A DNA stretch of 64,000 bases from Chloroflexota bacterium (GCA_031368515.1 JANMNW010000674.1:3969-67968); one strand, 5' to 3'. Numbered from the stretch's first letter, positions 6,313 through 54,707 are shown. Numbers and translations: made by a program. Notes: generated by a model not told the origin, from the letters alone.

Positions 6313-8914
<2,602 letters not shown>

Positions 8915-8918
<4 letters not shown>

Positions 8919-9466: not shown

Positions 9467-9481
9467 TGTTGTGCTCCAGTG

Positions 9482-11145: not shown

Positions 11146-11155
11146 AGAAATGCGT

Positions 11156-21932: not shown

Positions 21933-22092
21933 CACATGCCTCCACAGTAGCGCGAGTGGCCGTTTCTCGCCGCCTCGCACCCCTATTTTTAACAACGGCC
22001 TGAAACTGGCGCATCGGCCATGTGCGCCTTTCGCACTGACCAGTTGGACAGGTGATCTATTGCGTGGCCTACAATCAGCTCGGAGACTGGAG

Positions 22093-26017: not shown

Positions 26018-27889
26018 CTAGACCGCCACCACGCGCAATTCGATATCGGCCAGCGTCACGGCATCGCCTGGCTGCAGCGCAACCCGGGCATGCGCCGCCA
26101 GCCGCTCGCCATTCTTGCGTGTGCCATTCGACGAATTCAGATCGGTCACATGCAAGCCACCGGCCATGTCAAAGCGCGCGTGCGCGGCCGACAGAAAAGC
26201 GCTCGGCAACGTCACCGCATGCGCGCCGCACGGCGCGCGGCCGAGCACCAAGCCGTCGGCGCTGGCCGGAACCACGATGTCGCGGCCGGCTTGCGCACCG
26301 CTGGACACGCGCAGGCGCAGCCCGCCGCTTGCCACCTCGCCCGGCGCGGCAGCATTGATGAGATGCGTGCCTGACGCGCTGTGACCAAACTCAGCGGCCG
26401 GCGGCGCGACCACCGCGCGTACCAGCGTTTGCGCGTCGCCGCCGACTCGCGCGTGCCGCACACCAAATGCCGCATCTGCCGCAAGCGCATTGTGTGGCCT
26501 GGGCGGCGCATATGAGCGGCGCGCGCGAAGGGCAATGGCCGCGCCGCCAAGCAGCGTGACGACGGTCGTGGCAAGTCCGGCCACACCCGCAAGCGAGATC
26601 GAAACGCTGGGCGCCGGCGCAGCCTCGGCGCCAAGACCCGCCTGCGCCAGCGCGTGCGCAGCTGCAGTATCGGCGACGGCCAGCAACACTACGCGCTCGC
26701 CATACAACCGCATGTCTTGCACGCTGCCGTAGGCCCTGATCTTCAACGCTGTCGGCACGTTCGGGTCGAGCATGGCGGTGTCCAGCGTCAAGCTGAACGG
26801 CGGGCGCGCGGCCACTTCGGTGCGCGCGCCCAGCGTGTACTCTACGCGCTCGATATGCCGCCCCAGCACGCGCGGCGTCAAGCGAATTTGCTGCTCCATG
26901 GGCAGTGCCTGCGGGGCGACGGGTGCGCCTGCCGCCGCCAACTCCGGCCAATCGACAATCGGCGCAGCCGGCATGGGCACGAACGTCTGCGCAGCCTGCA
27001 GCGTGTCCATGCCCGCCCGCACGCGCACCACCGCCATGCGTTGGGTCAACGCCGGCGCCGCCCATGCGTCAAACCGCAGGCGGTAGCGCGCCCTCTGCCG
27101 CCAGGCGATCTGTGCGAAGGCGTGAGCGATGGCGTTCTTTGCGCCGGCGGCAATGTGCAGGCCACCGCTCGCCTGAGCCAGCCGATTGAGCGCGCGATGG
27201 TCCGCCGCGCCCACGCCAATGCTGATGATCGGCACGCCGTGAGCGCGTGCCAATGCAACGGCCTCGTCCAATGCGCACGCCGGTCCCAGCGCACTTCTTG
27301 CTGGCGCATCGCGGCCATCGCCAATTGCAATGATTACGCGCGCAATCTGCTTGCGCGAAGCCGACTTTTCGACTTCATCGCACAGCGCGTCGTAGAAGCG
27401 CGCGCGTGGGTCCGGGAGCAGCGCCTGAATAGCAGCGCGCGCTGATGCCGCGTCATTTTCAATCAGCGGTGACGCTGAGGGTGCATCGACTGACGCGCCC
27501 GCAACACGCCACAGCAAGGCGTCGCCCGGATCAATCGCGTCCAATGCCCTTGACGCGGCGTCGTTGAGCGCGCGCATCGAGCGCATCGGAACGCCAGGGT
27601 CAACGAGCACCGTCACATGCATGCGCACCGCCGGGTCGGCAAGCTTGCGCAGGCTCAACACGCGAGCGGGCGCGCCGGCGCTTTCGACGGTCACATCACC
27701 CGCCTGCACGTCATCAATCGGATCGCCGCGCCGATTGCGCAGCACCAGTTCGCACGACACCTCTGGATAGGCCGCGGCATCACACTTCTCCAGAACGGCT
27801 ATGGCGGAATCCAACGCGCGCGCAGGATTTGGCCTTTGCAGCGCACCGCACCCGAACGCGCACAAAAGCGCGGCCATCAGCAGGCGCAT
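26018..27889 (-). CDS. Signal peptide + extracytoplasmic vWA-like domain + TM helix + cytoplasmic FHA domain
   Basis: N-terminal MRLLMAALLCAFGCGAL. vWA-like blocks VTVLVDPGVPM (degenerate MIDAS), VIIAIGDGRDA, GVPIISIGVGAADHRALNRLAQASGG. TM helix LAGVAGLATTVVTLLGGAAIAL followed by RARR. C-terminal FHA: LVLGRAP..., SAAHARF, DLNSSNGTRKNGERL. Its start lies 1 nt after the upstream stop. Confidence 0.7.
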   Translation of the reverse strand: MRLLMAALLCAFGCGALQRPNPARALDSAIAVLEKCDAAAYPEVSCELVLRNRRGDPIDDVQAGDVTVESAGAPARVLSLRKLADPAVRMHVTVLVDPGVPMRSMRALNDAASRALDAIDPGDALLWRVAGASVDAPSASPLIENDAASARAAIQALLPDPRARFYDALCDEVEKSASRKQIARVIIAIGDGRDAPARSALGPACALDEAVALARAHGVPIISIGVGAADHRALNRLAQASGGLHIAAGAKNAIAHAFAQIAWRQRARYRLRFDAWAAPALTQRMAVVRVRAGMDTLQAAQTFVPMPAAPIVDWPELAAAGAPVAPQALPMEQQIRLTPRVLGRHIERVEYTLGARTEVAARPPFSLTLDTAMLDPNVPTALKIRAYGSVQDMRLYGERVVLLAVADTAAAHALAQAGLGAEAAPAPSVSISLAGVAGLATTVVTLLGGAAIALRARRSYAPPRPHNALAADAAFGVRHARVGGDAQTLVRAVVAPPAAEFGHSASGTHLINAAAPGEVASGGLRLRVSSGAQAGRDIVVPASADGLVLGRAPCGAHAVTLPSAFLSAAHARFDMAGGLHVTDLNSSNGTRKNGERLAAHARVALQPGDAVTLADIELRVVAV

Positions 27890-27890
27890 G

Positions 27891-29450
27891 TCAGATCACC
27901 ACCCGCAAGGCCGTCGATCCCAGCACCAGCTCGTCGCCAATATCCACCACACACGGCCCATCGATGCGTTGACCGCGCACCAGCACTCCATTGGCCGCGC
28001 GCGGCATCGGCCGCACGTGCCAGGCGTTGTCGGAAAAATGGAGCTCCGCATGCCAGCGCGAGATTTCGCGGTCGGCCGGGTTGAGCATGTCGCGGCCCAG
28101 CAGCATGGGCGAGCCCGTCACTGGCACGATGCGGCGCGCAGCAGCCACATGCAGCCGTATCGGCCGCAGCGCGTGTGGGGGCTTGTCCGCATCATGCGCT
28201 TGCGCGGCCAATCCATCCGCGCCCCGGACATCCGCGATGAGGCGCGCAAGTTCGCGCGCGCTGATCATGCGCCTGCGCGCATCCATGCCCAGCGCAAGAT
28301 GAATTGCCGCCCGCAGCTCGCGCGGCAGCGCCAGCCCGGCATCATCAAGAGCAACAGATTGGCCAGGCGCCGACCTCATTTGCGCATCATCGCATCCAAG
28401 CAACTGGCAGGCCAGGCTGGCGAATGCGCGCATGTCCGACGCCGCGCCGCCGCCGTCATCTGCCCGGGCCGCCGCGCCCGTTCGCGCCGCAAACAGCCGG
28501 GCCAGGCCCGCGTTGGCCAGTTGAATGTGATTGTCGGCGCCGATCAACACGTCGCCGGCTGTCAGCGCGCCATGCGCAAGCCCGGCGTCATGCAGCGCTG
28601 CCAACGCTTCCGATAGCTCATGCATGAGCCGCAAGGCTTCATGTTGCGGCGCCCGCTCGCGCATGCGGCCGGCCAGCGAGCCACCATGCGCAAAGGCTTC
28701 GATCAGATAAGGCGGTTCATGCGCGTCATCACCGCCATAGATCGGCGCCACAAGCGCATGCTTGAACGCCATCCCGGCGCGCAGATGCCGGGCAAAGCTG
28801 GCGCGCAACCCGTCCGGATCGCGGCGCAACAGCGTGTCGTTTAGAAATTTCACCGCAACCGCGCATCCCTCGCCCTCAGCGCAGCGCGCATCAGGCAGCC
28901 GCCCCGTCCGTAGCGCCGCCCGCCGCACCACGAAATGCTGGCCGACATGCACCACCTCGTCCAAATCGCACTGGCTGAGCCGAATCGGCTGTGAGCCCGC
29001 GCACGCAGCAGGCACGGCAGCGGCGCAATCGTTCGGCACAGCGCGTGGAATGGGCCACTCGCACCCAGCGCCAAGCACGGCATACACCGAACGCCCAATT
29101 TGGAATTGATCACCCGGCGCCAGCAATTCGTCGAAGACACGCCGGCCGTCGATCCAGGTGCCGTTGGCGCTGCCCAGATCGCGCAAGCGCAGTTCCGTCG
29201 CCGCGCGTTGCACCATCGCATGCTCGCGCGACGCATCCGGATCGGCGATGCGCGCCGGGCAGTGCGCCCCGCGGCCAATCAACAGCGCCTCGTCGCCAAT
29301 CCGGTAAAACGCGCCGTCGTTGGCGCCGGCCACACAAGCCAGCATCAAGCTCGGCTGGCGGCGGCGCTGCCGGCGGCGCAACAGCACCACCACGACCAAC
29401 ATAAGCAAAAGCGCCATGCACGGCGCGGCCCAAAACATCCACATTGGCAT
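27891..29450 (-). CDS. Membrane-anchored FHA - pseudokinase - FHA protein
   Basis: TM helix MWMFWAAPCMALLLMLVVVVLL + RRRQRRRQ. FHA1: LLIGRGAHC..SREHAMV..DLGSANGTWIDGRRV. The kinase-like core has VAVKFL, YLIEAFAHGGSL and LHDAGLAHGALTAGDVLI (HRD changed to HGA), then IQLANAGLA (DFG changed to NAG). FHA2: LLGRDM..SRWHAEL..ANGVLVRGQRI. The start is ATG 29450, or 29444 which has better SD spacing. Confidence 0.7.
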   Translation of the reverse strand: MPMWMFWAAPCMALLLMLVVVVLLRRRQRRRQPSLMLACVAGANDGAFYRIGDEALLIGRGAHCPARIADPDASREHAMVQRAATELRLRDLGSANGTWIDGRRVFDELLAPGDQFQIGRSVYAVLGAGCEWPIPRAVPNDCAAAVPAACAGSQPIRLSQCDLDEVVHVGQHFVVRRAALRTGRLPDARCAEGEGCAVAVKFLNDTLLRRDPDGLRASFARHLRAGMAFKHALVAPIYGGDDAHEPPYLIEAFAHGGSLAGRMRERAPQHEALRLMHELSEALAALHDAGLAHGALTAGDVLIGADNHIQLANAGLARLFAARTGAAARADDGGGAASDMRAFASLACQLLGCDDAQMRSAPGQSVALDDAGLALPRELRAAIHLALGMDARRRMISARELARLIADVRGADGLAAQAHDADKPPHALRPIRLHVAAARRIVPVTGSPMLLGRDMLNPADREISRWHAELHFSDNAWHVRPMPRAANGVLVRGQRIDGPCVVDIGDELVLGSTALRVVI

Positions 29451-29466
29451 CTCCCCACCGCTGCGC

Positions 29467-29781
29467 TCAGGCCCCGCCCCGCCGCAAGCGGTCTTCGATT
29501 TCCCGGCGCGCGCGCTCCTCGGCTTCCTGCACAATGTGGGCCGTATCTCGCAAAATTCCAGCAATGCGCGAAAGCATGCCTGGCAGCTGCGCAGAACGCG
29601 CGGCGCACGACTGCGCCTGCGCGCTGAATTCGTCGGAAGCGATGCCGTCCCAGGCCTCGAGTGCCTGTTGCGTGGCCTGCCCCGCCTGAGTCAGCACGTC
29701 GGTTTCGCCCGCTGCGCCTCGCTCAAACTCGCGGGCCACGGCGCGCATCTCGTCATAGTCGATTCCCAAAATAAAGGACAT
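29467..29781 (-). CDS. WXG100-family protein (paralogue 4)
   Basis: 104 aa helical hairpin. MSFILGIDYDEM N-terminus, central W-D-G, GGAG upstream of the ATG at 29781. Confidence 0.8.
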   Translation of the reverse strand: MSFILGIDYDEMRAVAREFERGAAGETDVLTQAGQATQQALEAWDGIASDEFSAQAQSCAARSAQLPGMLSRIAGILRDTAHIVQEAEERARREIEDRLRRGGA

Positions 29782-29805
29782 CTTTCGCTCCAACAGCCGG
29801 CGGGG

Positions 29806-30114
29806 TCACCCATCGGCCGAAATCGTGTGCGCAATCTCGGCGCGCGCCAGCGCCTCATGCTCTTCGACGATGCGCGCGGTTTCGCGCACATCGGTTGCCA
29901 GTTCGTCAAGCAGCGCCAGCGCGCGGCGCATGCGCGTGCGGCAGCTGAGGAGCTGCGCCATGAACTCCTGTTCCGCCACGCCATCCCAGCCTTCAAGCAA
30001 TTGCCGGTTGCGCGCATCGGCCCGGGCGAGGCAGCGCTTGATCACGCCGCCCTGCGCATCGAATGCTTGAGCCGTCGCCCGCAGCGCGTCGTATGGCGCC
30101 CGTATCGAGCTCAT
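29806..30114 (-). CDS. WXG100-family protein (paralogue 3)
   Basis: 102 aa with central LEGWDGVAEQEF. ATGA overlap with the stop of paralogue 2. Confidence 0.8.
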   Translation of the reverse strand: MSSIRAPYDALRATAQAFDAQGGVIKRCLARADARNRQLLEGWDGVAEQEFMAQLLSCRTRMRRALALLDELATDVRETARIVEEHEALARAEIAHTISADG

Positions 30115-30434
30115 GCTTCGCCTCCGGCAGTGTCATTGACCACGGCTGTCTCAATGGCGTCGCGCGCGCGCTGCTCCGCCAGGCGAATGGTGCGCGCCGT
30201 GATGTGCAGCGCAGTGCTGATCTGGTCAAGCACGAGCGGCACATGGCTCATGTCGCGCAGGCAGGCGGCGTAAGCCGGGTCAAATGCCGCGCGCGCCTTG
30301 CCCAGCCACAGCGGCGTCAGCTCGCCCACCGCTCGCTCAATGGCATGTATTGCCGCACGGGCTTCCTCTGCGCAACCGCCGATATCGAGCGCCACCGCCG
30401 TCATTTCGTCATAATTCAGGCGAATCTGGCCCAT
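30111..30434 (-). CDS. WXG100-family protein (paralogue 2)
   Basis: 107 aa. MGQIRLNYDEM, central W-L-G. AAGGAAGGA lies upstream of the ATG. Confidence 0.8.
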   Translation of the reverse strand: MGQIRLNYDEMTAVALDIGGCAEEARAAIHAIERAVGELTPLWLGKARAAFDPAYAACLRDMSHVPLVLDQISTALHITARTIRLAEQRARDAIETAVVNDTAGGEA

Positions 30435-30452
30435 CGAATCCTTCCTTGATCA

Positions 30453-30479
30453 ATGCGCGGCGCGGGTTGCCCCGCGCAT
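30453..30479 (-). promoter_or_regulatory. GC-rich stem-loop between WXG100 paralogues 1 and 2
   Basis: On the minus strand, GCGCGGG-GCAA-CCCGCGC (30460-30477) forms a 7-bp stem with a GNRA-type tetraloop. An alternative 8-bp stem is ATGCGCGG/CCGCGCAT (30453-60/30472-79). No U-tract follows. Confidence 0.5.
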
Positions 30480-30527
30480 CGAGCACCGTTCTAACAACTT
30501 GAAAAAATGAATTTGAGGGTTCGAACG

Positions 30528-30839
30528 CTAATTCGTGTCGTCCACGATCGCGCTGCCGATCTGCGCCCGCGCTTCTTCTTCAGCGCGCTGCACGAGGTCG
30601 GACGCTGTTTTGATGGCGGTGGAAATTTCGCTCATCATCAGCGGCGTGTGCTGCAGGCGCGCCATGCACGAATCGATCTGGGCGAGGAACTCGGTGTCCG
30701 CCACGCCCTCCCAACCCGCGCTCAGCTTGTCCGACTCGCCTTTCACGCGCTTAACCAGCTCGTCCGCCTGCTGCGACATCTGCATAAAGGTGTTCGAGCT
30801 CGCCGCCATCTCTTCATAGTTCATCTTGATTTGGCTCAT
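30528..30839 (-). CDS. WXG100-family protein (paralogue 1)
   Basis: 103 aa. MSQIKMNYEEM, central SAGWEGVADTEF. AAAGGAG lies upstream of the ATG at 30839. Confidence 0.85.
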   Translation of the reverse strand: MSQIKMNYEEMAASSNTFMQMSQQADELVKRVKGESDKLSAGWEGVADTEFLAQIDSCMARLQHTPLMMSEISTAIKTASDLVQRAEEEARAQIGSAIVDDTN

Positions 30840-30909
30840 GTCTGATTACTCCTTTGCGCCGGAGAGTGTTTGTCCGATCGCGCAGTTAGCATGACACAAA
30901 TCCGATGCG

Positions 30910-30945
30910 ATGAAGCTGACAGTTCCTGACAGTTCTGTCAGGTTC
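30910..30945 (-). promoter_or_regulatory. 36-bp operator-like element, copy 1 (upstream of the WXG100 operon)
   Basis: The plus strand reads ATGAAGCTGACAGTTCCTGACAGTTCTGTCAGGTTC. It matches 35985-36020 at 35 of 36 positions. It contains three 7-mers (CTGACAG, CTGACAG, CTGTCAG) starting at offsets 0, 10 and 19. Confidence 0.75.
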
Positions 30946-30955
30946 GCACATGCGC

Positions 30956-31582
30956 TCAGGCGAGCTTGAGCATGTAGCCCTTGCCGCGCACAGTCACGAT
31001 GAGGTCGCCCGCATCAGGGCTGATGCCGCGCAGCCGCAGCCGCAACCGGCTCAGCACTTGATCGAGCGCGTCGGAATCCATCAGGCCGTCGTAGTTGTGG
31101 CCCCATACCGCGCGGGCGCAATCGTGCCGCGCGCACACTTCACCGCGATGCTCAAACAAGTGCAGCAACAGGGCTTGTTGATCGCTGGACAAGTCGATTT
31201 TTTCGGCGTCCCAGAAAAAGCACCAGACTTTGAAATCGAAGCGCAAATGCGTGACCGGCTGCACAGTCTTGTCTTTGTCCAGATACACAATCAACCCGGT
31301 CGGATCGCCCAGGCCGATCTCGTCACCGTGCTTCAGCTTGTGGGGCGCACGCAACGGCCGGCCGTTGACAAATGTGCCATTCTGGCTTTGGCTGTCGCAC
31401 AAGACAAAGTAGTGACCATCCCAGGCAATGCGCGCATGCAGCCGTGATGTCAATGGACGCAGCACCACCATGGCGCAATCGCTCGCCCGGCCCAGCGTGC
31501 AGCCGCCGGCAGGCAGCACAATCATCTGCGGTGTGACTTCGGGAAAATTCGCCCGCAGTGCTTTGGTCGATGTCTTTGTCAT
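30956..31582 (-). CDS. FHA domain + OmpR/PhoB-type winged-helix DNA-binding domain transcriptional regulator
   Basis: FHA: CTLGRASDCAMVV..SRLHARI..DSQSQNGTFVNGRPL. C-terminal wHTH: LSSDQQALLLHLFEHRGEVCARHDCARAVWG...DALDQVLSRLRLRL...IVTVRGKGYMLK. ATG at 31582 lies within the longer ORF. Confidence 0.8.
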   Translation of the reverse strand: MTKTSTKALRANFPEVTPQMIVLPAGGCTLGRASDCAMVVLRPLTSRLHARIAWDGHYFVLCDSQSQNGTFVNGRPLRAPHKLKHGDEIGLGDPTGLIVYLDKDKTVQPVTHLRFDFKVWCFFWDAEKIDLSSDQQALLLHLFEHRGEVCARHDCARAVWGHNYDGLMDSDALDQVLSRLRLRLRGISPDAGDLIVTVRGKGYMLKLA

Positions 31583-31608
31583 CGTTTGCTCCCCAGAAAC
31601 GTTGTGAA

Positions 31609-34600
31609 TCATTGATTTTCCGGCGCTTTTAGCACAGCTTGCCCAATCGCGCTCAGCCAGTCGCCCCAGCCCCAGCCCTCCTCTTGCGGCACGGCAAATC
31701 GCGCGCGCAGCGGTTTGGACTGCCTGCGGCAGGTGTAGTAGCCGTGCCCGGCCGGCAACGGCTTGTCGCGTTCGCCCACGGGCAAGCGCAATCCAAAACC
31801 GACTGATTGCAGGCCGCCCAACACCACCCACGACTGCGCGTCCTTGATGCGTTTGAGCCAGCCGTCCAGCGCATCAAGCGCGCGATCAGGCCCGGCCATC
31901 AGCACATGAAAAGGCAAGCGTAAGCCGGCGCGTTCCAACAGGCCATCCAGCCGCTCTTTGGCCACGCGCGGCAATGCGCGGACAAAAGCGTCGGCGTCGT
32001 CAATCGCAAGCACCACCGCGGGCAGGCCGCGGGCTATCGTGGATGCGCTCCATTCCGGCGTCGCCGCGCGCGCGGCATGCTGCATCTCGCCCATGCTTTC
32101 CAGCGTGGCGGCAAGCTCATCAAGCAGCGCAGGAATTTCATCGCCATGCTGCGCACACTGGCGCACGTGCGGCAACCCGGACAGCGCGGCCAAGCCGTCG
32201 TCCGCGCCGCTGACATCGCACAGATACACCATCAGCTGGTCGGGATCGCGCGCACGCGCCAGCGACAGCAGCATGCTTTGCAGCACGGAGGTTTTTCCGC
32301 TTTGCGGCGCGCCGGTGACAAGCACGTGCGGGCTGGCGCCGATGTCAATCCGCAAAGGTTGTAAGTCCGCGGTCTGCAGCCCAACCGTGGCGACAAGCGG
32401 CTCGCCGGCACGTTCGCCGGACACACGCGCATGCGGCGCATCAGCCAGAAGCGCGCGCAAAGTCAACTCGGCCGGCATGGTCGCAATCGGCGGCGCGCGC
32501 CGCCCGGCGTATTGCGCGCGCAATGCGCCAGCCGCTTCGGCCAGTTGCGCCGCGCGCTCGGCATCGGTGGCGCCCGGCGCTGGCAGCGCCGCCTGGAATT
32601 CCAGCGGGCTCTGCCCCATCCGTTTGATCAGCCCGCGCCCGGGCGTCGCCGCCGGTTCCAGGCCGCCCGTCCGTCCAACCACTGCGGCATAGTCGGAGCG
32701 ATCCGCCAGTTGAAACGCAAGCGCGGCCGTGATATTGCCGCTCACGCGGCTGCGCACGTCAAGCGGTTTGTTGGCGCTGATCACCACATGCATCCCCAGC
32801 GGCGCGCCTTCGCGCACTACAGTGACCAGCGTATCTTCGTAGTCCATGCGGGCAAAAGCCGGATAGTTGTCGATGACCAGCAGGATCGCCGGCATGCCAG
32901 CCGCGGCGCCCAGATCGGCAAACTTGCGGCCGGCCAGCGCGTCTTTGCGCAAGGCCAATTCGCGCCGCAGCTGGCGAAACAGCCGCATCAGGCGTTCATC
33001 GTCGTCTTCAAACAGCACGGCGCCCACCTGCGGCAGCGCAGCCAACGCCGTCAGGCTGCGGCTGCCAAAGTCCAGCACGTAGGCATTTAGCTCGTCGGGC
33101 GAATGCGCACGCGCCAGCGCTAGCAACAGTGTTTGCAGCAAGGTTGATTTGCCTGCACCGGCCTGGCCGAACATCATCAGGTGCCCATCGCGGCCCAAAT
33201 CGATGATTGCCGCATCCTGCCGGCGCTCGCGCGGGTCGTCCATGCGGCCAATGACTGCGCGCAACCAGCCCGCAGTGTCGCCGGATGCGGCCGCCGATTC
33301 AAGCAGCAGCCGTTCGGGCAATGGATCGAGCCAGATGCGTTCGGCCGCTTGCACGTGTTCGGCGAGCGTTGTCCGGCGCACGTGGTCCATCAGCGCAGCC
33401 AACTGGCGCGGCTGTTCGCCGCCTGGCGGGCGCGGTTGCGTGATCCAGCAGCGCCGTTGCAGATCGGGCGTGCCATCGAGCAGCAGCGGCGCCACGTACC
33501 GTTGCGCCGCGTCCGGGTCTTCGTCCGGGTCGTAGCGCGCTCCGCCATACGCCGATTGAAATCGCTCATAGCGCTCATCGCTGCCCACCAGAAAGTATGC
33601 CTCTCCCGCGCGCGCAAGGTGAGCGGCATCGGGGCGTTTGAGCATTTCCTTGCTGTCACTTTCGTCCTGCACGCGCAGGCACAGCTTGAAGCGGCTGTTC
33701 GACCAGATCTGGTCGTCTACAACGCCAGACGGTTTTTGAGTGGCAAGGATCAGATGCACGCCCAGGCTGCGGCCGATTCGCGCGGCGCTGATCAGCTGCT
33801 TCATAAAGTCGGGCTGGTCGCGTTTCAGCTCGGCAAACTCATCCACGATGATCACCAGACGCGGCATGGCCTTGAAGCGATCGGCGCCGCCTGCCGCATA
33901 TAGGCGCTGATAGTCGTCGATATAGGTCACGCTGTGCTGATCAAAGATGCGTTGACGCCGCTTGAGCTCGCTGGCCAGCGCGATAAGCGCGCGGCGCGCG
34001 GCGCTGGGCTCAACGAGGTTGGTAATCACGCCGCTCAAATGCGGCAGGTCGATATCCGGCACGGGCGACACCGTGCGCGCGGCCGAACGCTGGCGCAGAA
34101 ACGCATTGGCCATGCCGCCGCCTTTGTAGTCAATCAACAAAAATGAAATCCACTCCGGGCTGAAGCGCACCGCCAGCGAAGCGATCAGGGTCTGCAACAA
34201 CTCGCTTTTGCCCGCGCCGGTTGTGCCGGCGACCAACCCATGCGCGCCATGGCCGCGATCTCCATCGCGCAAATCCAGCTGCAGCAATCGTCCACCCGCC
34301 GCGCGGCCGATCGGCACGACAAGCGAGCCTGCGTCCAAATGCGCATGCGTGCGCCACAGCCCGGCGACATCCACATCCTCCACGTGGCGGGCATCCCACA
34401 GTGAAAGCAGCGTCACGGCCGCAGGAATTTCAGCGGGTGCGGCGGTGCGGCGCAGCCGGATGGCTGACAGCGAGCGCGCCAACGCCTCGCACTCCAGCCC
34501 CGGCAGCGCGTCTACGCTGTCGAGCTGTCGCGGGCGGCCGTTGTCGGTCGCCGCAAACAGACGCGCGCGGCCGGCTTCATAGTGGACATAGGCGTCGCAC

Positions 34601-35946
34601 TCGCGCGGCAACAGATGCCGGTGGTCCGCCAGAAACACCGCGGTAAACCCTGCGCCGCGCGCCAGCGCAAGCAACTGCGGCAGCGCAGCATCTTGGCCAA
34701 ACAGGCCGGGCTCCGCCAGAAAGAAAAGGGTATGGCGCGGAAGCTGTTCAGCCCGCGCCTTGCGATGCGCGGCCAGCAAGACGGCGTCAAGCGCGCGTTT
34801 GGCGCCGTCGGGGTCGCACGCCAGCAGGCGATGGCGGTGTTCGGCATCCCACGCATGCGGCAACCAGCGCATCCAGCGCCACGCATCGCCCTCAGTTTCC
34901 GGGAAAACCGCGGCGAGTGCGAGATCGTCCGGGCTGTGATGCGCGGCCAGCTGCGCCGCCAGCGCGAAACAGGCGCGCAGCAGCGCGGCGCGCGGGCCGG
35001 CCAGCCCCAGCGCGCGCAACTGGCCGACCGGCACGCACAGCGGCACGCGCTCGATCGCGGCAAACGCGTCCGCCAGTTCAAGCATGCGGTCGCCCAGCGC
35101 ATCGGGCGCCAACAACGGCTCGTAGCGCGCAGTCTTGATCGTGAAGCGGGCGGGCGCGCGCCCAAGACCGATACGCGCCTGCAAGTAATCGGGGTCGCCC
35201 GGTTCGCGCATCCACACGCGCGCGCATTGCCGCACGCGGCCGCGCAGAGTGTGCAAGTCCGGGTCCTCGTCCAGCGCTTCGATTCGCAGGCGATTGACTT
35301 GCGCCGCCAGCTGCGCGCGACGTTGCTCCAGATATGAGTCGTAACGCGCGGCGCGTTCAGCCATATCGCGGGCATGGCGGCGCCGTTCGCTGACATAGGA
35401 CCACAGGCCTGTCAGCGCGGACGCGCCCATGAATCCGGTGGTGAGAAAGTTCATCGGACCGTTGGCATGCGGCAAGCTCACCGTTGCGGCCAGAGATGCG
35501 ACGGCAAACGCCGCCGGCATTACGATGCCCGGCCATTGCAGGCGCGGCGCGCTTGGCGCGTTGGGCGGCGCGGTCAGTTCGATCTCACCCCCTTCCAATT
35601 GAAAAAATGGACGCGGCGGGCGCTGGAAGAATGGCTGCGGCTTGGCGGGCAAAACGGCGGGCGAGCGGTCGCTGTGTTGCGGCCGCTCGGATACGCAGAC
35701 CAGATGCACCTGCGCGCCATCCCAAACACCAGCGTGATCCAGACTGTCCTCTGCCCGCAGCGGCACGCGCGCGTCGCATTGCTCGGCATGCGAGATGATC
35801 CAGTGTTGGCCGGCAGGGCATCGCCAGTCCAGCGCGCTGGCGATGGCCGGCGCAAGGTCATAGGCTGGCACATCAGCGGGCGCGCGCACGTCTTCGGGCG
35901 GCCAGCCTGCGGCATTGGCTGTAACAAACACCTGTCGCATCGTCAT
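31609..35946 (-). CDS. EssC/EccC-like FtsK/SpoIIIE-family type VII secretion ATPase with N-terminal YukD-like ubiquitin fold
   Basis: N-terminal ~85 aa resemble YukD/EsaB (QHWIIS..., SLDHAGVWDGAQVHLV). Two TM helices (WPGIVMPAAFAVASLAATVSL, MNFLTTGFMGASALTGLWSYV). Three P-loops: GTTGAGKSE, GQAGAGKST, GAPQSGKTS. Walker B motifs: VIIVDEFAEL, LLVIDNYPAF, VLAIDDADAF. The start is 35946 or 35940, not 35979 (see findings). Confidence 0.9.
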   Translation of the reverse strand: MTMRQVFVTANAAGWPPEDVRAPADVPAYDLAPAIASALDWRCPAGQHWIISHAEQCDARVPLRAEDSLDHAGVWDGAQVHLVCVSERPQHSDRSPAVLPAKPQPFFQRPPRPFFQLEGGEIELTAPPNAPSAPRLQWPGIVMPAAFAVASLAATVSLPHANGPMNFLTTGFMGASALTGLWSYVSERRRHARDMAERAARYDSYLEQRRAQLAAQVNRLRIEALDEDPDLHTLRGRVRQCARVWMREPGDPDYLQARIGLGRAPARFTIKTARYEPLLAPDALGDRMLELADAFAAIERVPLCVPVGQLRALGLAGPRAALLRACFALAAQLAAHHSPDDLALAAVFPETEGDAWRWMRWLPHAWDAEHRHRLLACDPDGAKRALDAVLLAAHRKARAEQLPRHTLFFLAEPGLFGQDAALPQLLALARGAGFTAVFLADHRHLLPRECDAYVHYEAGRARLFAATDNGRPRQLDSVDALPGLECEALARSLSAIRLRRTAAPAEIPAAVTLLSLWDARHVEDVDVAGLWRTHAHLDAGSLVVPIGRAAGGRLLQLDLRDGDRGHGAHGLVAGTTGAGKSELLQTLIASLAVRFSPEWISFLLIDYKGGGMANAFLRQRSAARTVSPVPDIDLPHLSGVITNLVEPSAARRALIALASELKRRQRIFDQHSVTYIDDYQRLYAAGGADRFKAMPRLVIIVDEFAELKRDQPDFMKQLISAARIGRSLGVHLILATQKPSGVVDDQIWSNSRFKLCLRVQDESDSKEMLKRPDAAHLARAGEAYFLVGSDERYERFQSAYGGARYDPDEDPDAAQRYVAPLLLDGTPDLQRRCWITQPRPPGGEQPRQLAALMDHVRRTTLAEHVQAAERIWLDPLPERLLLESAAASGDTAGWLRAVIGRMDDPRERRQDAAIIDLGRDGHLMMFGQAGAGKSTLLQTLLLALARAHSPDELNAYVLDFGSRSLTALAALPQVGAVLFEDDDERLMRLFRQLRRELALRKDALAGRKFADLGAAAGMPAILLVIDNYPAFARMDYEDTLVTVVREGAPLGMHVVISANKPLDVRSRVSGNITAALAFQLADRSDYAAVVGRTGGLEPAATPGRGLIKRMGQSPLEFQAALPAPGATDAERAAQLAEAAGALRAQYAGRRAPPIATMPAELTLRALLADAPHARVSGERAGEPLVATVGLQTADLQPLRIDIGASPHVLVTGAPQSGKTSVLQSMLLSLARARDPDQLMVYLCDVSGADDGLAALSGLPHVRQCAQHGDEIPALLDELAATLESMGEMQHAARAATPEWSASTIARGLPAVVLAIDDADAFVRALPRVAKERLDGLLERAGLRLPFHVLMAGPDRALDALDGWLKRIKDAQSWVVLGGLQSVGFGLRLPVGERDKPLPAGHGYYTCRRQSKPLRARFAVPQEEGWGWGDWLSAIGQAVLKAPENQ

Positions 35947-35984
35947 TTCCAGGAACGGCGATAGTGTGCGACAAAGCATGCAGA

Positions 35985-36020
35985 ATGAAGCTGACAGTTG
36001 CTGACAGTTCTGTCAGGTTC
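35985..36020 (-). promoter_or_regulatory. 36-bp operator-like element, copy 2 (upstream of essC-like gene, in the divergent region with the kinase)
   Basis: The plus strand reads ATGAAGCTGACAGTTGCTGACAGTTCTGTCAGGTTC, one mismatch from copy 1. Confidence 0.75.
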
Positions 36021-36081
36021 AGTTGAGCCGATCACATAATGGCGCGCAGCGCGAATTTATGTACACAAAACGACGCTATAG

Positions 36082-36145
36082 CCGGAGAAAACTTTAAGAG
36101 TTTTCATCTCTTAAAGAGATGAAAACTCTTAAAGTTTTCTCCCGG
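36082..36145. repeat. AT-rich 64-nt near-perfect palindrome with nested GAAAAC-N7-GTTTTC sites
   Basis: GGAGAAAACTTTAAGAGTTTTCATCTCTT (36084-36112) | A (36113) | AAGAGATGAAAACTCTTAAAGTTTTCTCC (36114-36142) forms 29 perfect base pairs. The outer CC/GG pair follows after a 1-nt bulge. Each arm contains GAAAAC-N7-GTTTTC (36087-36105 and 36121-36139). Confidence 0.85.
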
Positions 36146-36188
36146 TCATGACGAATCGCTCGTTTGACTCTACAATCTTCACGACGGC

Positions 36189-38201
36189 ATGGGCACGTCC
36201 CAGGCTTGTCAAGGGGTTGTTGTGGCGTTTGATCTGATTGGAAAAACGCTCGGCCCATACCGCATTGACGCATTGCTCGGCGCTGGCGGCATGGCCGAGG
36301 TGTACAAAGCCTTTCAACCGAGCATGGACCGCATTGTCGCGCTCAAAGCGCTCCCGGCCGCGCTCAGCGCACAGCCGGAGTTTCGCGAGCGCTTTCGCCG
36401 CGAAGCAAAGCTGATCGCCCAGCTCAAGCACACGCACATTCTGCCGGTGTATGACTTCGGCGAAGCCGAAGGCCACGCCTACCTGGTCATGCCGCTGATG
36501 GAAAACGGCACGATCGCTTCGCGCGTGCGCGGCCGCCGCCTCCCGCTCGAAGACATCGTGCGCGTCGGCACGCAAATCGGCGACGCGCTCGATTACGCGC
36601 ACGAAAAAGGCATGGTGCATCGCGATGTCAAACCAGGCAACATCCTGCTCGACACGCGCGGCAATTGCCTGCTCAGCGACTTTGGCATCGCGCGGATGAC
36701 GGTCGACACGCTCACGCCGGATCAATCGCGCATGGGCACGCCTGCCTACATGTCGCCCGAACAAGCCGAAGGCGACAACATCGACGGCCGCTCCGATGTT
36801 TATTCGCTGGGCGTGGTGCTCTATGAACTGGCCACTGGGCGACGACCGTTTGACTCGTCCGACCCCAATGTGCTGATGTATCAGCACGCACACAATACGC
36901 CGCCTGCCCCGCGCAGCATCGATCCCACCCTTCCCGAGCAGCTGGAATGGGTCATCCTGCATGCGATGGCCAAACGCCCGGCCGACCGCTTCATCAATGG
37001 CGCTGAGCTTGGCCGGGCGCTGCGCCCGCTGATTATCAGCGAGCGCAGCGGTCCCGATGCCGCACGCCCGCGCATCGCCCCGGATTTGCCGGTCGCCAGC
37101 AAAGTTGCCGGGCCTGTGGCCTCGGATGCCGCAACTGCGCCGCGCCCCAACGCCGAAGCCCCGCCGCCCGCGCGGAATGCGCCGCTCAATACCGCGCTGC
37201 TGCCCGCAGGCGTGGCGCGCCCGGGTGCCGCGCGCCCGGCTTTCCAACCGGCGCCCTTCGCGCCACCGGCGCCGGCCAAAGCGCGTTGGCGCCTCCCCAG
37301 ATTCAGACGGATTTTCGCCATCGGACAGAGCGCACGGCCGTCGCCGGCAAGCTACGGATATGGCGGCGCGCACGAACGGTCCAGGCCGCTGTTCAACACG
37401 CTTTTTGCCGGGCTGGCCGGCGCGATTATTCTGGTGCTGCTGGCCAGCGCGGTCAGCAACTTCTTGCGCAGCATCAACGAGCAGGCTGCGGCCATCGCGC
37501 CGCCCACCGCCACCTATGCGGCTTTCGCCACAGCGTTGGCTGATGCGACAGAAACGCCGGCGCCGGCTGAGACTCCTGCGCAAGTGACAGTCGCCGCCGC
37601 AGCCGATGCCCCGGCTGTTGCAGTGACAATCGCGCCCGCGCAAGTCACCGAAACGCCTTTGAGCGCGCGGCCGCTTGCCGAGCCGGCGGCCTGCGCGCGC
37701 GCCAGCGCGCTGACGCTCGACCCCGGCCAGCTCCAGGGCGTCGGATGTCCATCGCAGGCATTGGTGCCGGCGCGGCGCGTGATGGTGCAGACATTCGAAC
37801 GCGGCATCATGGTGCTGTTTCTGCGCAACAACAGCGCGTTGAACGGCGGGGTCATCTACGCGCTCGCAAGCGATGGCCACGCCTGGCGCATCAGCGACAC
37901 CTGGGCCAGCGCTTCACGCAATCGCGACACTTGGTACTCGTGCCGCGCGGCGCCCGGGCAATCGCCCGCGCAATCCGGTGTGCCATGGCGCGGATTTGGG
38001 CGGGCATGGTGCAACGACCAGGCGCTGGCCTCTGCTTTGGGTGCGGCCGTCACGGAAGAATCGGATGCGCGAGCGGCTTTCCAGGCGCATGCCAACGGGC
38101 GCGTCTTTCGGCTGGACAACTGGCCCGGCGCGCCTGGCTTTGCGCCGGAGCGCATCTATGCCGTGGCCATGCTCGACAATCGCTCCGAGCAGTGGCGCTG
38201 A
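36189..38201 (+). CDS. Receptor-type Hanks Ser/Thr protein kinase (kinase, Pro/Ala-rich linker, TM helix, Cys-containing ectodomain)
   Basis: LGAGGMAEVYKA, VALK, HRDVKPGNILL, SDFGIA, GTPAYMSPEQ. TM helix LFAGLAGAIILVLLASAVSNFL. The ~230-aa C-terminal domain has 4 Cys. Confidence 0.9.
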   Translation: MGTSQACQGVVVAFDLIGKTLGPYRIDALLGAGGMAEVYKAFQPSMDRIVALKALPAALSAQPEFRERFRREAKLIAQLKHTHILPVYDFGEAEGHAYLVMPLMENGTIASRVRGRRLPLEDIVRVGTQIGDALDYAHEKGMVHRDVKPGNILLDTRGNCLLSDFGIARMTVDTLTPDQSRMGTPAYMSPEQAEGDNIDGRSDVYSLGVVLYELATGRRPFDSSDPNVLMYQHAHNTPPAPRSIDPTLPEQLEWVILHAMAKRPADRFINGAELGRALRPLIISERSGPDAARPRIAPDLPVASKVAGPVASDAATAPRPNAEAPPPARNAPLNTALLPAGVARPGAARPAFQPAPFAPPAPAKARWRLPRFRRIFAIGQSARPSPASYGYGGAHERSRPLFNTLFAGLAGAIILVLLASAVSNFLRSINEQAAAIAPPTATYAAFATALADATETPAPAETPAQVTVAAAADAPAVAVTIAPAQVTETPLSARPLAEPAACARASALTLDPGQLQGVGCPSQALVPARRVMVQTFERGIMVLFLRNNSALNGGVIYALASDGHAWRISDTWASASRNRDTWYSCRAAPGQSPAQSGVPWRGFGRAWCNDQALASALGAAVTEESDARAAFQAHANGRVFRLDNWPGAPGFAPERIYAVAMLDNRSEQWR

Positions 38202-38202: not shown

Positions 38203-39642
38203 CTAGCGCCACAGGTCGAGCTGCGGCGGCGCGGTATCCGGAAACCAGCGCGCATAGATCTCGGCGTAGCTGCCATCGGCGATCATTTGCTGCAACGCAA
38301 GATTGACCGCGTCGCGCAGCGGCGATTGTCGCTGGGGCAGACCGATGGCCACAGTCGTGTCGCCGGCGCGATAGATCGGTGTTGAAAAATCGATCACCCG
38401 GTCAAGCGTCTGTGTGCGCGGCAGCCCGCCGATCACCAGATCGGCCGTCCCGGCGGCAAAAACTTGTGCCGCATCGCCAGCCAGCGGCAAAAACTCAACC
38501 GACTCCGCCGAACCCATCACGCGTGCGCCGATGGCGCGAGACAGCTCCACCTCAAACCCGCCCGGCAAATTGTTCTCTTCAAGCCGGGAAAAAGGCGGAT
38601 TGCTGGCAAAGGCCACGCGCAAACGATTGGCCGCGCGAGCTTGGGCCAAACGATCAACCGATTGCAGCGCGTCAGGCAGCTGCGCAAGCTGCAAGTCGAT
38701 CGGCCCCAGCAGGGGCGCCAGCGCCGAAGGATCGGGCGGCGCGCCAAACCATTGTTGATACAGGCGCGCATACGTGCCGTCCAACATCATGTTGCTCAGC
38801 GTGATGTTGACCAGGTCCGCCCACTCGGAATCGCCTGGCGGCAGCACAATGGCCACCGGTTCGCGCTTGAAGACGCTCAGGACAAACAGCGCGGGGTCCT
38901 GCGCCGCGCGCGTGCGCAAGCGGCGCCAGCGCCCGGCCATGCCATCCACATCGCCGTTGGCCAGCAGGCCGTATGCCTCGGCATAGGTGCTGGCCGCCTT
39001 GGTCGTCACTGTGACGCCATTGACGTTTTGCGCATCGCGCAGTGCAAAGGTGCTCGCGTCGTCAACGTAGACGATCGGCCGCCCGGCCAGCGACACAAAA
39101 TCCGAGAACGTCCCGGTGCGCACTAGCAACGCATCGCCGTCCTGCAGGTAGGGCATGCTGAAATCCGCTTCAAGCTCGGCGGCGCGGCTCTGCACAATGC
39201 CGCCCATGGCCAGATCGACCTCTCGCGCGCGCACTTTGCCCGGCGCCGAATTGCTGGTGACCTGAACAAACTCAACATTGCGATCGCTGCCCAGCCAGCG
39301 CCGCGCAAACTGCCGCGCCAAATCCACGTCAAAGCCTTCGAGCTCGCCACGGTCGTTTACCCGCGACAGCGGCGGGGCATCAAAGCGAATGCCGACGCGA
39401 ATGCGGCTGCGCAGCTTGACCAGCGCCGCGGTTGAATAATCCGGCGGCGGCGGCGTCACCGAGGCTTCGATCGTCACCGGGTCGGCCGTGGCCACCACGC
39501 GCGCAATCGAATCGACATTGACGTAGCGCTGCACGGTGTCCAGCGAAAGCGAGCTGCACGCGGTCATAGCCAGCGTCAGCAACGCCGCCAGCGCGCGCCG
39601 CGCCGCGCCGATGCCTGTAGCTTTGCCCACGGTCTCACTCAC
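38203..39642 (-). CDS. Lipoprotein with two tandem family-3 (amino-acid type) solute-binding domains
   Basis: Lipobox LTLAMTACSS. Two repeats of the SBP_bac_3-like pattern: IRVGIRFDAPPLS...GFDVDLAR and LRVAFASNPPFS...GFEVELSR. Confidence 0.8.
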   Translation of the reverse strand: MSETVGKATGIGAARRALAALLTLAMTACSSLSLDTVQRYVNVDSIARVVATADPVTIEASVTPPPPDYSTAALVKLRSRIRVGIRFDAPPLSRVNDRGELEGFDVDLARQFARRWLGSDRNVEFVQVTSNSAPGKVRAREVDLAMGGIVQSRAAELEADFSMPYLQDGDALLVRTGTFSDFVSLAGRPIVYVDDASTFALRDAQNVNGVTVTTKAASTYAEAYGLLANGDVDGMAGRWRRLRTRAAQDPALFVLSVFKREPVAIVLPPGDSEWADLVNITLSNMMLDGTYARLYQQWFGAPPDPSALAPLLGPIDLQLAQLPDALQSVDRLAQARAANRLRVAFASNPPFSRLEENNLPGGFEVELSRAIGARVMGSAESVEFLPLAGDAAQVFAAGTADLVIGGLPRTQTLDRVIDFSTPIYRAGDTTVAIGLPQRQSPLRDAVNLALQQMIADGSYAEIYARWFPDTAPPQLDLWR

Positions 39643-39985
39643 CGATAAACTCGACGGTCTGGCCTGAAGGCAGGCGCAGCACCGTCACACGCTGAGTCAT
39701 GCCAAGCTCTTCCTGGTCCAGCTCAATTGTCTGATCCGCCTCGCGCAAGGCGGCAGTGATCTTTTCCAGATTCGGCACATGCAGCCCAAACTGAACGGTG
39801 CCATCCAGAGCCGCATCGGCGCCGACTGCGCGCTGCAGCACAAGCTGCGCGCCGCGCGTGCTGAACACGACGATGTTTGCATCCTCGTAGGAAATTGGCA
39901 CTTGCAGCACATTGGCAAAGACATCGCGATTGGCCGCAAAGTCCTTGGACCAGATGGACACGTAGCTGACTTGTAGCTCGGACAT
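39635..39985 (-). CDS. VOC/glyoxalase-family small protein
   Basis: 116 aa with a beta-alpha-beta-beta-beta-like pattern (VSYVSIWSKDFAANRDVF...). ATG at 39985 lies within the longer ORF. Confidence 0.6.
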   Translation of the reverse strand: MSELQVSYVSIWSKDFAANRDVFANVLQVPISYEDANIVVFSTRGAQLVLQRAVGADAALDGTVQFGLHVPNLEKITAALREADQTIELDQEELGMTQRVTVLRLPSGQTVEFIGE

Positions 39986-39992
39986 GCTTTGA

Positions 39993-46622: not shown

Positions 46623-46632
46623 GGGCGAGAGG

Positions 46633-47679: not shown

Positions 47680-47750
47680 GAACTATGAATTCCTCCATGC
47701 GAAATGTTCTGCGAGTGCGCAACTTCCAAGTTGCTTGCCAAAAGCGTGGG

Positions 47751-47801
47751 CGCCGATTTGCCCGTACCCGTCGCGTGTCGACGGGTACGGGCAAATCGGC
47801 G
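47751..47801. terminator. 23-bp perfect stem-loop between the lyase-like and FemAB-like genes
   Basis: CGCCGATTTGCCCGTACCCGTCG (47751-73), loop CGTGT, then CGACGGGTACGGGCAAATCGGCG (47779-801). The plus strand continues GGCATTGTTTTTGG. The minus strand continues CCCACGCTTTTGG. Confidence 0.65.
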
Positions 47802-47823
47802 GGCATTGTTTTTGGACTGTTGC

Positions 47824-50178: not shown

Positions 50179-50207
50179 CGGCGGCAATGCACAATCGCAG
50201 CAAGCAG

Positions 50208-52687: not shown

Positions 52688-52787
52688 ATGAAGTTCCTCC
52701 TCGAAACACACGCCTCTGAGCCGTGACACATCTCGAATGAAACTACCCTATGCTTTGTTTCGCAGCAGGTTCCAATTCGAAGGATAT

Positions 52788-54704: not shown

Positions 54705-54707
54705 TTT

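Follow-up and report, generated by a model that had tools for sequence, protein, structure and literature searches.

What kind of machine is encoded where genes for WXG100 proteins and an FtsK/SpoIIIE-type ATPase lie among genes for kinase-fold and FHA-domain proteins, and what part would the latter play in it? The question is raised by a locus of nine open reading frames (ORFs) at positions 26018-38201 of a 64,000-nt stretch of contig JANMNW010000674.1 (GCA_031368515.1), the whole of which we call the window. Here we present a computational analysis of this locus, which on its domain content is type VII-like, because its ATPase scores above the curated cutoff of the EssC model and its four WXG100 proteins score above the gathering threshold of their Pfam family. 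The reading that we favour, at a probability of roughly 0.6, is that a signalling cassette for threonine phosphorylation was taken up into a type VII-like WXG100 export locus.

An original prediction, made from the sequence alone, had placed in this interval an EssC-like ATPase with three P-loop domains, a regulator combining an FHA domain with a winged helix-turn-helix (wHTH), four tandem WXG100 genes (29467-30839), a membrane-anchored FHA-pseudokinase-FHA protein, a protein with a von Willebrand factor A (vWA) ectodomain, a transmembrane segment (TM) and an FHA domain, and a divergently oriented, catalytically intact receptor kinase of the Hanks type. ORF calls and domain matches bear out all nine ORFs and their coordinates. 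The details claimed along with them hold as well, namely the single nucleotide (position 27890) between the last two genes, the same 36-bp element before each of the two minus-strand gene runs, the presence of four FHA domains on three proteins, and the fusion of a ubiquitin-like (Ubl) module of the YukD kind to the ATPase.

The ATPase gene (31609-35946, minus strand) encodes a protein with a Ubl domain at residues 1-90, two TMs at about residues 138-196 and three FtsK domains. Pfam recognizes three FtsK_SpoIIIE stretches (E 2e-66), Walker A motifs are found in all three domains, at residues 574, 927 and 1212, and the first domain carries a canonical Walker B motif (VIIVDE). The NCBIfam equivalog model for EssC, TIGR03928, matches residues 116-1425 at 956 bits (cutoff 778). 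Those for EccCa and EccCb stay under their cutoffs (459 vs 509 and 316 vs 347, respectively), and the FtsK model reaches 54.8 bits.

No FHA domain was found on the ATPase by Pfam; its N-terminus is a beta-grasp, ubiquitin-like domain. The YukD family of Pfam scores 24.8 bits there, under its cutoff of 27, and the assignment comes from structure prediction: an AlphaFold model of residues 1-110, built with four homologues, has a pLDDT of 84 and the beta-beta-alpha-beta-beta-beta order of a grasp fold. Foldseek searches with this model returned ubiquitins and the Ubl domain of EccD1 (4kv2, E 2.3e-4, 25% identity), followed by EccD of the ESX-5 and ESX-3 complexes and by EccD5 (7b7j), and the top match to the Protein Data Bank (PDB) by sequence was likewise the EccD1 Ubl. 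The Ubl-EssC fusion is thus confirmed at the level of the predicted fold. The Ubl module is supplied in cis on EssC, and a separate protein of the EsaB/YukD type is absent from the locus proteins scanned.

The four WXG100 genes are all on the minus strand. The first (30528-30839) encodes 103 aa and scores 51.4 bits against PF06013 and 52.7 bits against TIGR03930, above the cutoff of the latter. The second (30111-30434; 107 aa; PF06013 37.4 bits) overlaps by 4 nt with the third (29806-30114; 102 aa; 39.4 bits). The fourth (29467-29781), which most likely starts at the ATG at 29781, encodes 104 aa with WDG at residue 44 and the C-terminal sequence VQEAEERARREI, and scores 28.8 bits against PF06013 and 41 bits against TIGR03930. 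The paralogues are only 25-38% identical to one another, and all four, as well as their orthologues, have a WxG motif at about residue 43 and an HxxxD/ExxhxxxH pattern at about residue 83, the latter having been proposed as a common type VII recognition surface (PMC3935865). Export of these proteins by the ATPase is a prediction from these motifs. There is no further WXG100-like ORF in the window. The spacer between the first two genes was considered as an attenuator and dismissed, as its hairpin is no better than those of shuffled sequences (z = -1.4).

As the original prediction had stated, no membrane component of the established type VII secretion systems (T7SSa, T7SSb) is recognizable among the ORFs in Pfam and NCBIfam scans. 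EccB, EccD, EccE and the mycosin MycP gave no match in the 39 window ORFs scanned (the nine of the locus and 30 flanking); EsaA and EssA had no Pfam or NCBIfam match in the nine locus proteins and the flanking ORFs; and no locus protein matched YukC/EssB in Pfam at E<=0.01. A 127-aa ORF at 39635-40018 was examined as an EssA-like membrane protein and rejected, being devoid of a TM. Domain scans of the window ORFs also found no relaxase or other conjugation gene.

The EssC relatives of the window protein lie at 95%, 83%, 51% and 50% identity and then at 35% or less, and those at or below 35% carry N-terminal FHA domains. A scan of 185,579 species representatives with EssC found only Clostridia loci, at 28-34% identity, and no close relative. 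Within the clade, the adjacency to which the original prediction had drawn attention is kept, the FHA, pseudokinase, vWA, regulator and kinase genes staying with the core down to 51% EssC identity. Thus L001 (83% EssC identity) has the full block, with a solute-binding protein (SBP) gene, the divergent kinase, Ubl-EssC, the FHA-wHTH regulator, four WXG100 genes, the pseudokinase and the vWA gene. L009 (51%) keeps the full nine-gene block, and because its downstream flank differs, the block can be bounded at the vWA gene. The partial contig L010 (50%) has the same gene order up to its end, and another partial contig, L062, whose vWA protein is 35% identical, carries two WXG100 genes, a pseudokinase and a vWA-FHA gene in that order. 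Ratios of nonsynonymous to synonymous substitution (dN/dS) between the window and L001 are 0.03-0.26 for the nine genes, indicating purifying selection. The first WXG100 protein is the most conserved of the four, at 96% identity in L001, 81% in L010 and a dN/dS of 0.08 (0.083); its gene and that of the regulator are under the strongest constraint of the nine.

The origin of two proteins is central to our reading. The first is the FHA-pseudokinase-FHA protein (27891-29450, minus strand; 519 aa), which has an N-terminal TM followed by RRRQRRRQ, two FHA domains (77 bits) and a match of 42.7 bits to PK_Tyr_Ser-Thr. Because of the basic stretch after the TM, the body of the protein is predicted to be cytoplasmic. 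Its kinase domain reads HGA where active kinases have HRD and NAG where they have DFG, and its Gly-rich loop has degenerated. PDB sequence matches include the FHA protein GarA, PknB (E 6e-6) and Rad53, and by these matches the pseudokinase is a relative of Hanks-type kinases. EssB/YukC of T7SSb consists of an N-terminal pseudokinase, a TM and a C-terminal extracellular domain; the topology of the locus protein, with its N-terminal anchor and cytoplasmic remainder, is the opposite. Homology to EssB was therefore ruled out, on the grounds of no family match, this opposite topology and the existence of sister proteins that are active kinases. The protein is rare: a search of 5.8 billion proteins yielded no more than five that are close to it (76-100% identity). 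Its dN/dS is 0.19. A metagenome scan with the pseudokinase alignment, whose patterns fell inside the FHA domain, returned 49 loci of generic FHA proteins, none with a match to EssC, WXG100 or the vWA ectodomain, and was for this reason uninformative. The sole distant word-based match, P0006, was set aside for its unrelated FHA/kinase context.

The second is the vWA/TM/FHA protein (26018-27889, minus strand; 623 aa), in which a signal peptide is followed by a beta-sandwich (residues 30-84), the vWA domain (91-265), a beta/Ig-like region (267-403), the TM (433-457), a disordered linker (460-521) and the FHA domain (524-622). In Pfam the FHA domain scores 35.5 bits and the vWA domain 23 bits, just under the cutoff of 23.8; this sub-threshold match is backed by the family profile, by AlphaFold and by Foldseek. 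With the ectodomain as query, HMMER gave 765 representatives at E<1e-3 in an exhaustive search, 105 of them at E<1e-10, many being 600-690 aa long. In a sample of 40 members, 35 matched VWA, 33 FHA and 12 the Ig family Big_7, and the profile of these 40, searched against the PDB, matched structures of both domains (vWA 2e-20, FHA 2e-18). The AlphaFold model (pLDDT 84) shows the same succession of beta-sandwich, vWA, beta/Ig, TM helix, disordered linker and FHA, and Foldseek related it to ITIH1, to the vWA domain of ANTXR2, to ArnB and to the FHA domain of DgcB; no T7SS structural component was among its Foldseek matches. The metal-ion-dependent adhesion site (MIDAS), an intact DxSxS in the family consensus, is degenerate here: DPGVP in the window, DSGVP in L001 and DTGRE in L009. 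The dN/dS of this gene is 0.26, and a tblastn search of the protein against plasmids gave no match.

About 30 residues before the FHA domain, members of the vWA-TM-FHA family share a conserved (K/R/Q)-T-x-(V/I) motif, which lies in the disordered linker on the cytoplasmic side. Its threonine is present in 30 of the 40 family members, and the window protein has QTLV at residues 487-490 (window 26420-26431). This threonine is a candidate phospho-acceptor, to which an FHA domain might bind in cis or in trans.

The two genes follow the last WXG100 gene on the same strand with gaps of 16 nt (WXG100 to pseudokinase) and 1 nt (pseudokinase to vWA), which suggests that the WXG100, pseudokinase and vWA genes form one operon. 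Distant relatives of the vWA-TM-FHA protein (24-30% identity) place the pair in another context. In L065/L066, L067/L068 and L069 a TM-FHA-kinase-FHA gene lies upstream and a PP2C gene downstream, and the distant TM-FHA-kinase-FHA proteins align end to end with the window pseudokinase protein. The kinases of L065, L066 and L067 have intact HRD and DFG motifs and a full activation loop; the window, L001, L009 and L062 share HGA, N[AGV]G and a shortened activation loop. Kinase or pseudokinase and vWA genes are adjacent in L009, L062, L066, L067 and L069, and PP2C follows the pair in L065/66, L067 and L069 and does so neither in the window nor in L009 or L062. In L067, whose vWA identity is about 24-28%, the cassette lies beside four small genes, two of them with WXG100 Pfam matches, and a Trans_reg_C gene.

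Given the end-to-end alignment and the conserved adjacency, the pseudokinase derives from the active kinase of a kinase/vWA-FHA/PP2C cassette. The most economical history, judged from these alignments, is that a general threonine-phosphorylation cassette was recruited to a WXG100/EssC cluster, and that this clade then lost both the phosphatase and the activity of the kinase. Here we depart from the original prediction, which had regarded the accessory proteins as T7SSb modules that were re-partitioned, with FHA displaced from EssC and the pseudokinase EssB inserted between two such domains; the pair is better explained as a separate cassette. It may be a functional analogue of EssB and the FHA domains of EssC, not a homologue, and the sequences are compatible with either a structural or a regulatory role for the two proteins. 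The active kinase/vWA/PP2C cassette itself seems to be a widespread three-gene signalling unit, for which we found no name in the literature searched; further Ser/Thr kinases or a large surface protein of NIDO/Ig-like type are sometimes encoded next to it.

The transcriptional arm of the proposed circuit is a 208-aa protein (30956-31582, minus strand) with an FHA domain (63.9 bits) and an OmpR/PhoB-class winged helix (Trans_reg_C, 52.1 bits). It has no receiver domain, the N-terminal domain being FHA, its PDB matches are the DNA-binding domains of VicR/WalR, and its dN/dS of 0.033 is the lowest in the locus. From this domain order, the protein would be an OmpR-type DNA binder in which a phospho-threonine input replaces phospho-aspartate. 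Together with the two FHA domains of the pseudokinase protein and the one of the vWA protein it brings the number of FHA domains to four. The phospho-threonine-binding residues GR / SxxH / NG are invariant in all four, which look competent for phospho-threonine binding.

The 36-bp element is present at 30910-30945, about 70 nt upstream of the first WXG100 gene, and at 35985-36020, 38 nt upstream of the essC start, in both cases on the minus strand. On the coding strand it reads GAAC-CTGACAG-AA-CTGTCAG-GAA-CTGTCAG-CTTCAT, an inverted pair followed by a 10-bp direct repeat. The two copies are identical at 35 of 36 positions, there is no further copy in the 64 kb, and zero matches are expected by chance (100 shuffles). 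Both positions, ahead of essC and ahead of the leading WXG100 gene, are occupied by the element in L001, L009 and L010 as they are in the window; L009 has a third copy, which precedes its second WXG100 gene. The element persists at about 50% protein identity amid divergent intergenic DNA. Regulators of the OmpR/PhoB class bind tandem direct repeats with a periodicity of about 10-11 bp. As the FHA-wHTH protein is the only DNA-binding protein of the locus and belongs to this class, we infer that it co-regulates both operons through the element, a candidate operator, and, being encoded in the essC operon, it would also be autoregulatory. In the L009 database entry the start of the ATPase is an ATG inside the element (L009 7737-7800); the alignment of orthologues puts the start about 18 codons downstream (MRHV...).

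The receptor kinase gene (36189-38201, plus strand) is divergent from essC and encodes 670 aa, with a Pkinase match of 164 bits, intact catalytic motifs (VALK, HRD and DFG) and a TM at about residues 400-425. It occupies the same position in L001, L009 and L010. Because the kinase of the cassette is dead, the receptor kinase would be the obvious source of phospho-threonine. Its ectodomain (residues ~520-670, window 37750-38201) is rich in Cys and Trp, with the motifs GCPS, VQxFExG, WYSC and PWRxxGxAWC, and is conserved in relatives and without a match in Pfam. The 36-bp element was not found before the kinase gene, which has a sigma-70-like site at 36148-36176. Directly upstream of this site, between the essC operator and the promoter-like sequence of the kinase, lies a perfect AT-rich palindrome of 59 bp (36084-36142; 29-nt arms, 1-nt spacer) with a DNA fold z-score of -12, terminator-like on both strands. 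It is found again in L001 only (three mismatches, 93% complementary) and is absent from L009 and L010.

Taken together, the favoured reading would work as follows. Through its ectodomain the receptor kinase would perceive a signal from the envelope or from outside the cell, and it would autophosphorylate on threonine; phospho-threonine sites would be read by the four FHA domains. The FHA-wHTH protein would bind the tandem 10-bp CTGTCAG repeats near the -35 of both promoters, so that the ATPase and substrate operons are switched together. The dead-kinase scaffold and the vWA-TM-FHA protein would act as membrane adaptors coupling the state of the kinase to assembly or gating of the Ubl-EssC hexamer, with the vWA/Ig ectodomain possibly coupling an extracytoplasmic ligand to it as well. 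This adaptor step would resemble that of PpkA-Fha1 in the type VI secretion system (T6SS) and that of YukD, the FHA domains of YukB, and YukC in T7SSb. WXG100 dimers would be recognized by the C-terminal ATPase domain of EssC and then exported. A stronger version, which we advance tentatively, makes the locus an eleventh T7SS subtype, and a non-Gram-positive one, with Ubl-EssC as the sole translocon protein, with the assembly and firing of the channel under the sole control of phospho-threonine/FHA contacts, made by the dead-kinase scaffold and an envelope-spanning vWA-FHA receptor under a separate receptor kinase, and with an FHA-OmpR protein as the direct link to transcription. If true, it would be a self-contained module that senses, transcribes, assembles and fires.

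Several observations weigh against the favoured reading. L066 and L069 are contigs of 7-10 kb that carry the cassette and no WXG100 or EssC gene, and the link of the cassette to secretion may thus be regulatory only, or facultative. With its degenerate MIDAS, metal-dependent ligand binding by the vWA domain is doubtful. There is no phosphatase gene in the locus, the nearest PP2C/SpoIIE gene being 13 kb away, and no cargo other than the WXG100 proteins is visible within the window. The signalling chain as a whole is deduced from sequence, and its phospho-acceptors are candidates. Upstream of the block in L009, genes for an iron-containing alcohol dehydrogenase (Fe-ADH), a GT4 glycosyltransferase, a small ORF and the SBP are conserved alongside the kinase; the conserved position of the kinase could therefore reflect general synteny and is weak evidence of a functional link. 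The placement of this uncultured bacterium in Chloroflexota, finally, is probable and comes from a single protein on the syntenic contig L009, not on the window: the best named matches of the L009 IF3 are Candidatus Brachytrichaceae (Anaerolineae, 61%) and Thermoflexales (59%).

These points, and others, leave room for rival explanations. The pseudokinase and vWA proteins might be obligatory translocon subunits, functional equivalents of EssB, of the FHA part of EssC or of EsaA, and the locus a re-partitioned T7SSb core. This would account for the tight packing of the two genes behind the WXG100 genes and for a protein that has lost its catalytic residues and is nevertheless constrained (dN/dS 0.19), as befits a pure scaffold; Ubl, FHA and pseudokinase are also the modules of the T7SSb core unit (PMC12637312), and no other membrane partner of EssC is encoded. 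However, the missing EssB/YukC match and the opposite topology, the homology of the pair to an active cassette that also occurs on contigs without a T7SS gene, and the absence of T7SS structural components from the Foldseek matches of the vWA protein lead us to regard this explanation as rather improbable.

It is less probable still, and in our judgement unlikely, that the kinase, and possibly the cassette, lie here by inherited synteny, leaving a bare machine of Ubl-EssC and WXG100 proteins under the FHA-wHTH regulator only, with the kinase serving general envelope signalling. An FHA regulator and three further competent FHA domains need a threonine kinase, and that of the cassette is dead; moreover, the divergent kinase-essC layout is seen in all four genomes in which it is visible, and kinases recur in T7SS variant clusters (PMC11217815). 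What speaks for inherited synteny is that the unrelated upstream genes for SBP, GT4 and Fe-ADH match the kinase in conservation in L009 and L010, that the kinase gene has its own promoter-like site and lacks the 36-bp element, and that a lineage-specific palindrome separates it from essC. As for a DNA translocase of conjugation or segregation, with unrelated small helical proteins beside it, FtsK/SpoIIIE domains are indeed common to such enzymes and weak P-loop matches to TraB, TrwB and VirB4 were obtained, but the EssC equivalog score dwarfs that of FtsK, the protein combines three tandem ATPase domains with two N-terminal TMs and a Ubl, four WXG100 genes with the secretion-signal pattern lie nearby, and relaxase and conjugation genes are missing from the window. 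We consider this explanation highly improbable.

How does the locus compare with known systems? It shares with T7SSb (Ess/Yuk of Staphylococcus aureus and Bacillus subtilis) the EssC-class ATPase, sagEsxA-type WXG100 proteins with the C-terminal pattern, and a ubiquitin-like module, FHA domains and a pseudokinase around the motor. The differences lie in how these are supplied. In the locus the Ubl forms part of EssC, which itself carries no FHA domain; the FHA domains of the partner proteins keep the phospho-threonine-binding residues that those of T7SSb EssC are reported to lack (PMC11217815); the pseudokinase is Hanks-derived, N-terminally anchored and outside the EssB/YukC family; EssA and EsaA are absent; and the WXG100 genes number four, against a single one in T7SSb. 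The YukD protein of B. subtilis binds the FHA, DUF and first ATPase domains of YukB and recruits the pseudokinase YukC (PMC12637312), and it is these same three module types that the locus possesses, otherwise supplied.

Closer in theme are the systems T7SSc-T7SSj of Bacillota and Actinomycetota, in which kinases, PPM phosphatases, FHA proteins and a cytoplasmic vWA protein have been catalogued (Garrett, Higginson & Palmer 2024, PMC11217815). Like the locus, they combine EssC, WXG100 and Ubl with membrane Ser/Thr kinases, FHA and vWA (TscE) proteins and, as a theme, PPM phosphatases, and the nearest EssC outside the clade (about 35% identity) is found in T7SSd/e-like loci (L011). In contrast, the locus probably belongs to Chloroflexota, no described subtype fuses the Ubl to the ATPase, and none has an FHA-pseudokinase-FHA protein, an extracytoplasmic vWA-TM-FHA protein (TscE being cytoplasmic) or an FHA-wHTH regulator; conversely, TsdH/TsdI, DUF6382-FHA and EspG-like genes and a phosphatase are absent from the locus. 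By the descriptions in PMC11217815, the locus is set apart from T7SSc, which has the TscD kinase, TscE, the PPM phosphatase TscF, the EspG-like TscG and a separate Ubl, TscB: it too has an active membrane kinase, but its vWA is extracytoplasmic, its Ubl is fused, and there is no phosphatase or EspG-like gene. T7SSd/e, defined by an FHA-EssC, the TsdD kinase, the small TM protein TsdH and the giant Ig-repeat protein TsdI, fits L011, whereas the window has no FHA-EssC, giant Ig protein or TsdH-like gene.

Recently, experiments were reported on the threat-sensing Esr pathway of oral Actinomycetales (bioRxiv 2026, PMC13622651), in which vWA, MoxR, kinase, phosphatase and FHA genes in Esx operons control Esx transcription and, on the model of its authors, probably activity. 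A vWA protein, a Ser/Thr kinase, an FHA output protein and, on the mechanism proposed here, control by threonine phosphorylation are common to Esr and the locus. The surface beta-propeller sensor, the MoxR ATPase, the transglutaminase and the phosphatase of Esr are all absent from the locus; unlike in Esr, the FHA output protein of the locus is fused to an OmpR-type DNA-binding domain, and its cassette kinase is dead. The MoxR-vWA 'ternary' conflict systems (PMC7159879) were considered as well and dismissed, as there is no MoxR ATPase.

Beyond type VII secretion, the locus has parallels in other threonine-phosphorylation circuits. Phospho-threonine-FHA signalling gates assembly of a secretion machine in the T6SS, through PpkA-PppA-Fha1 in Pseudomonas aeruginosa and TssL-Fha in Agrobacterium. 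Hanks kinase, extracytoplasmic vWA, FHA and PP2C are common to that pathway and to the ancestral cassette of the locus. The secretion machine is unrelated, however, and PpkA bears its vWA on the kinase, whereas the locus has vWA and FHA on one polypeptide and a kinase-like protein with two FHA domains. The type VI pathway has also been discussed in the context of T7SS variants (PMC11217815). A second parallel is the phosphorylation-dependent vWA/FHA pair near a kinase and a phosphatase, as in ArnA-ArnB of Sulfolobus (PDB 8s05, 5a8i, 5a8j) and DRA0331-0334 of Deinococcus (bioRxiv 10.64898/2026.01.23.701218), ArnB and ArnA being among the best PDB matches of both the vWA-TM-FHA family profile and the AlphaFold model. 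In these systems, unlike here, the proteins are soluble and cytoplasmic, vWA and FHA are separate, and the output is motility or the DNA-damage response. The FHA-kinase-FHA order is shared with eukaryotic Rad53/Chk2 as an architectural analogy only, the locus protein being bacterial, membrane-anchored and catalytically dead.

Pairs of WXG100 and FtsK genes have been noted in Chloroflexi since the early 2000s (PMC4010439, PMC3935865, PMC10765036); in the searchable literature we found no description of the accessory genes or components of a Chloroflexi T7SS. The original prediction had called four FHA domains on three proteins in such a locus unusual. The exact layout appears to be undescribed in the literature searched, but its parts are not new, since kinase, FHA and vWA genes in T7SS clusters were catalogued in 2024. 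The concept is thus already known, both from those clusters and from the Esx-controlling pathway of 2026. What appears to be undescribed in the literature searched is the probable phylum, the Ubl replacing FHA on EssC, the pseudokinase/vWA pair and its origin, and the FHA-OmpR regulator with its shared operator.

So far, the dissection of type VII secretion has been confined to Actinomycetota and Bacillota. The value of the locus is that the trio of Ubl, FHA and kinase fold around the motor can evidently come from different genes, a natural experiment on which contacts are essential for assembly of the machine. It also offers a compact and testable circuit, with one operator at two promoters, one FHA-wHTH protein and one receptor kinase, with which to study control by threonine phosphorylation, a question already posed for T7SSc-j and lately taken up for Esx in oral Actinobacteria. 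For the specialist the architecture is informative rather than startling, and its practical value is limited, as it is known from a handful of metagenome-assembled genomes with no visible cargo besides WXG100.

The flanks of the locus contain further genes of note; Rfam and tRNA scans of the window found nothing that could serve as an RNA marker for taxonomy or otherwise. Downstream of the locus, 16172-18787 encodes an M4 thermolysin-family protease with a MAM-like domain and 21838-24972 a 1044-aa protein with DUF11 and endonuclease/exonuclease/phosphatase domains; both are probably secreted and, because they are not conserved beside the locus in L009, probably unrelated to it. On the other side, the G+C content falls from about 63% to about 55% across window positions ~46600-64000, and the 50.2-64 kb interval holds a polysaccharide or O-antigen-like cluster with two GT4 genes, an asparagine synthase, a Wzx-like flippase, a Wzy_C ligase-like protein and a DegT aminotransferase; the region ~46600-64000 may be a horizontally acquired glycan island. 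At 6300-13429 an H-NOX (haem-NO-binding) gene lies beside a PAS-rich hybrid histidine kinase, a response regulator and a SpoIIE/PP2C phosphatase, the last being the only PP2C-type gene of the window, about 13 kb from the locus. A 557-aa ORF at 2460-4133 is Cpn60/TCP-1-like, with only 125 bits against the chaperonin model, and looks like a divergent GroEL paralogue.

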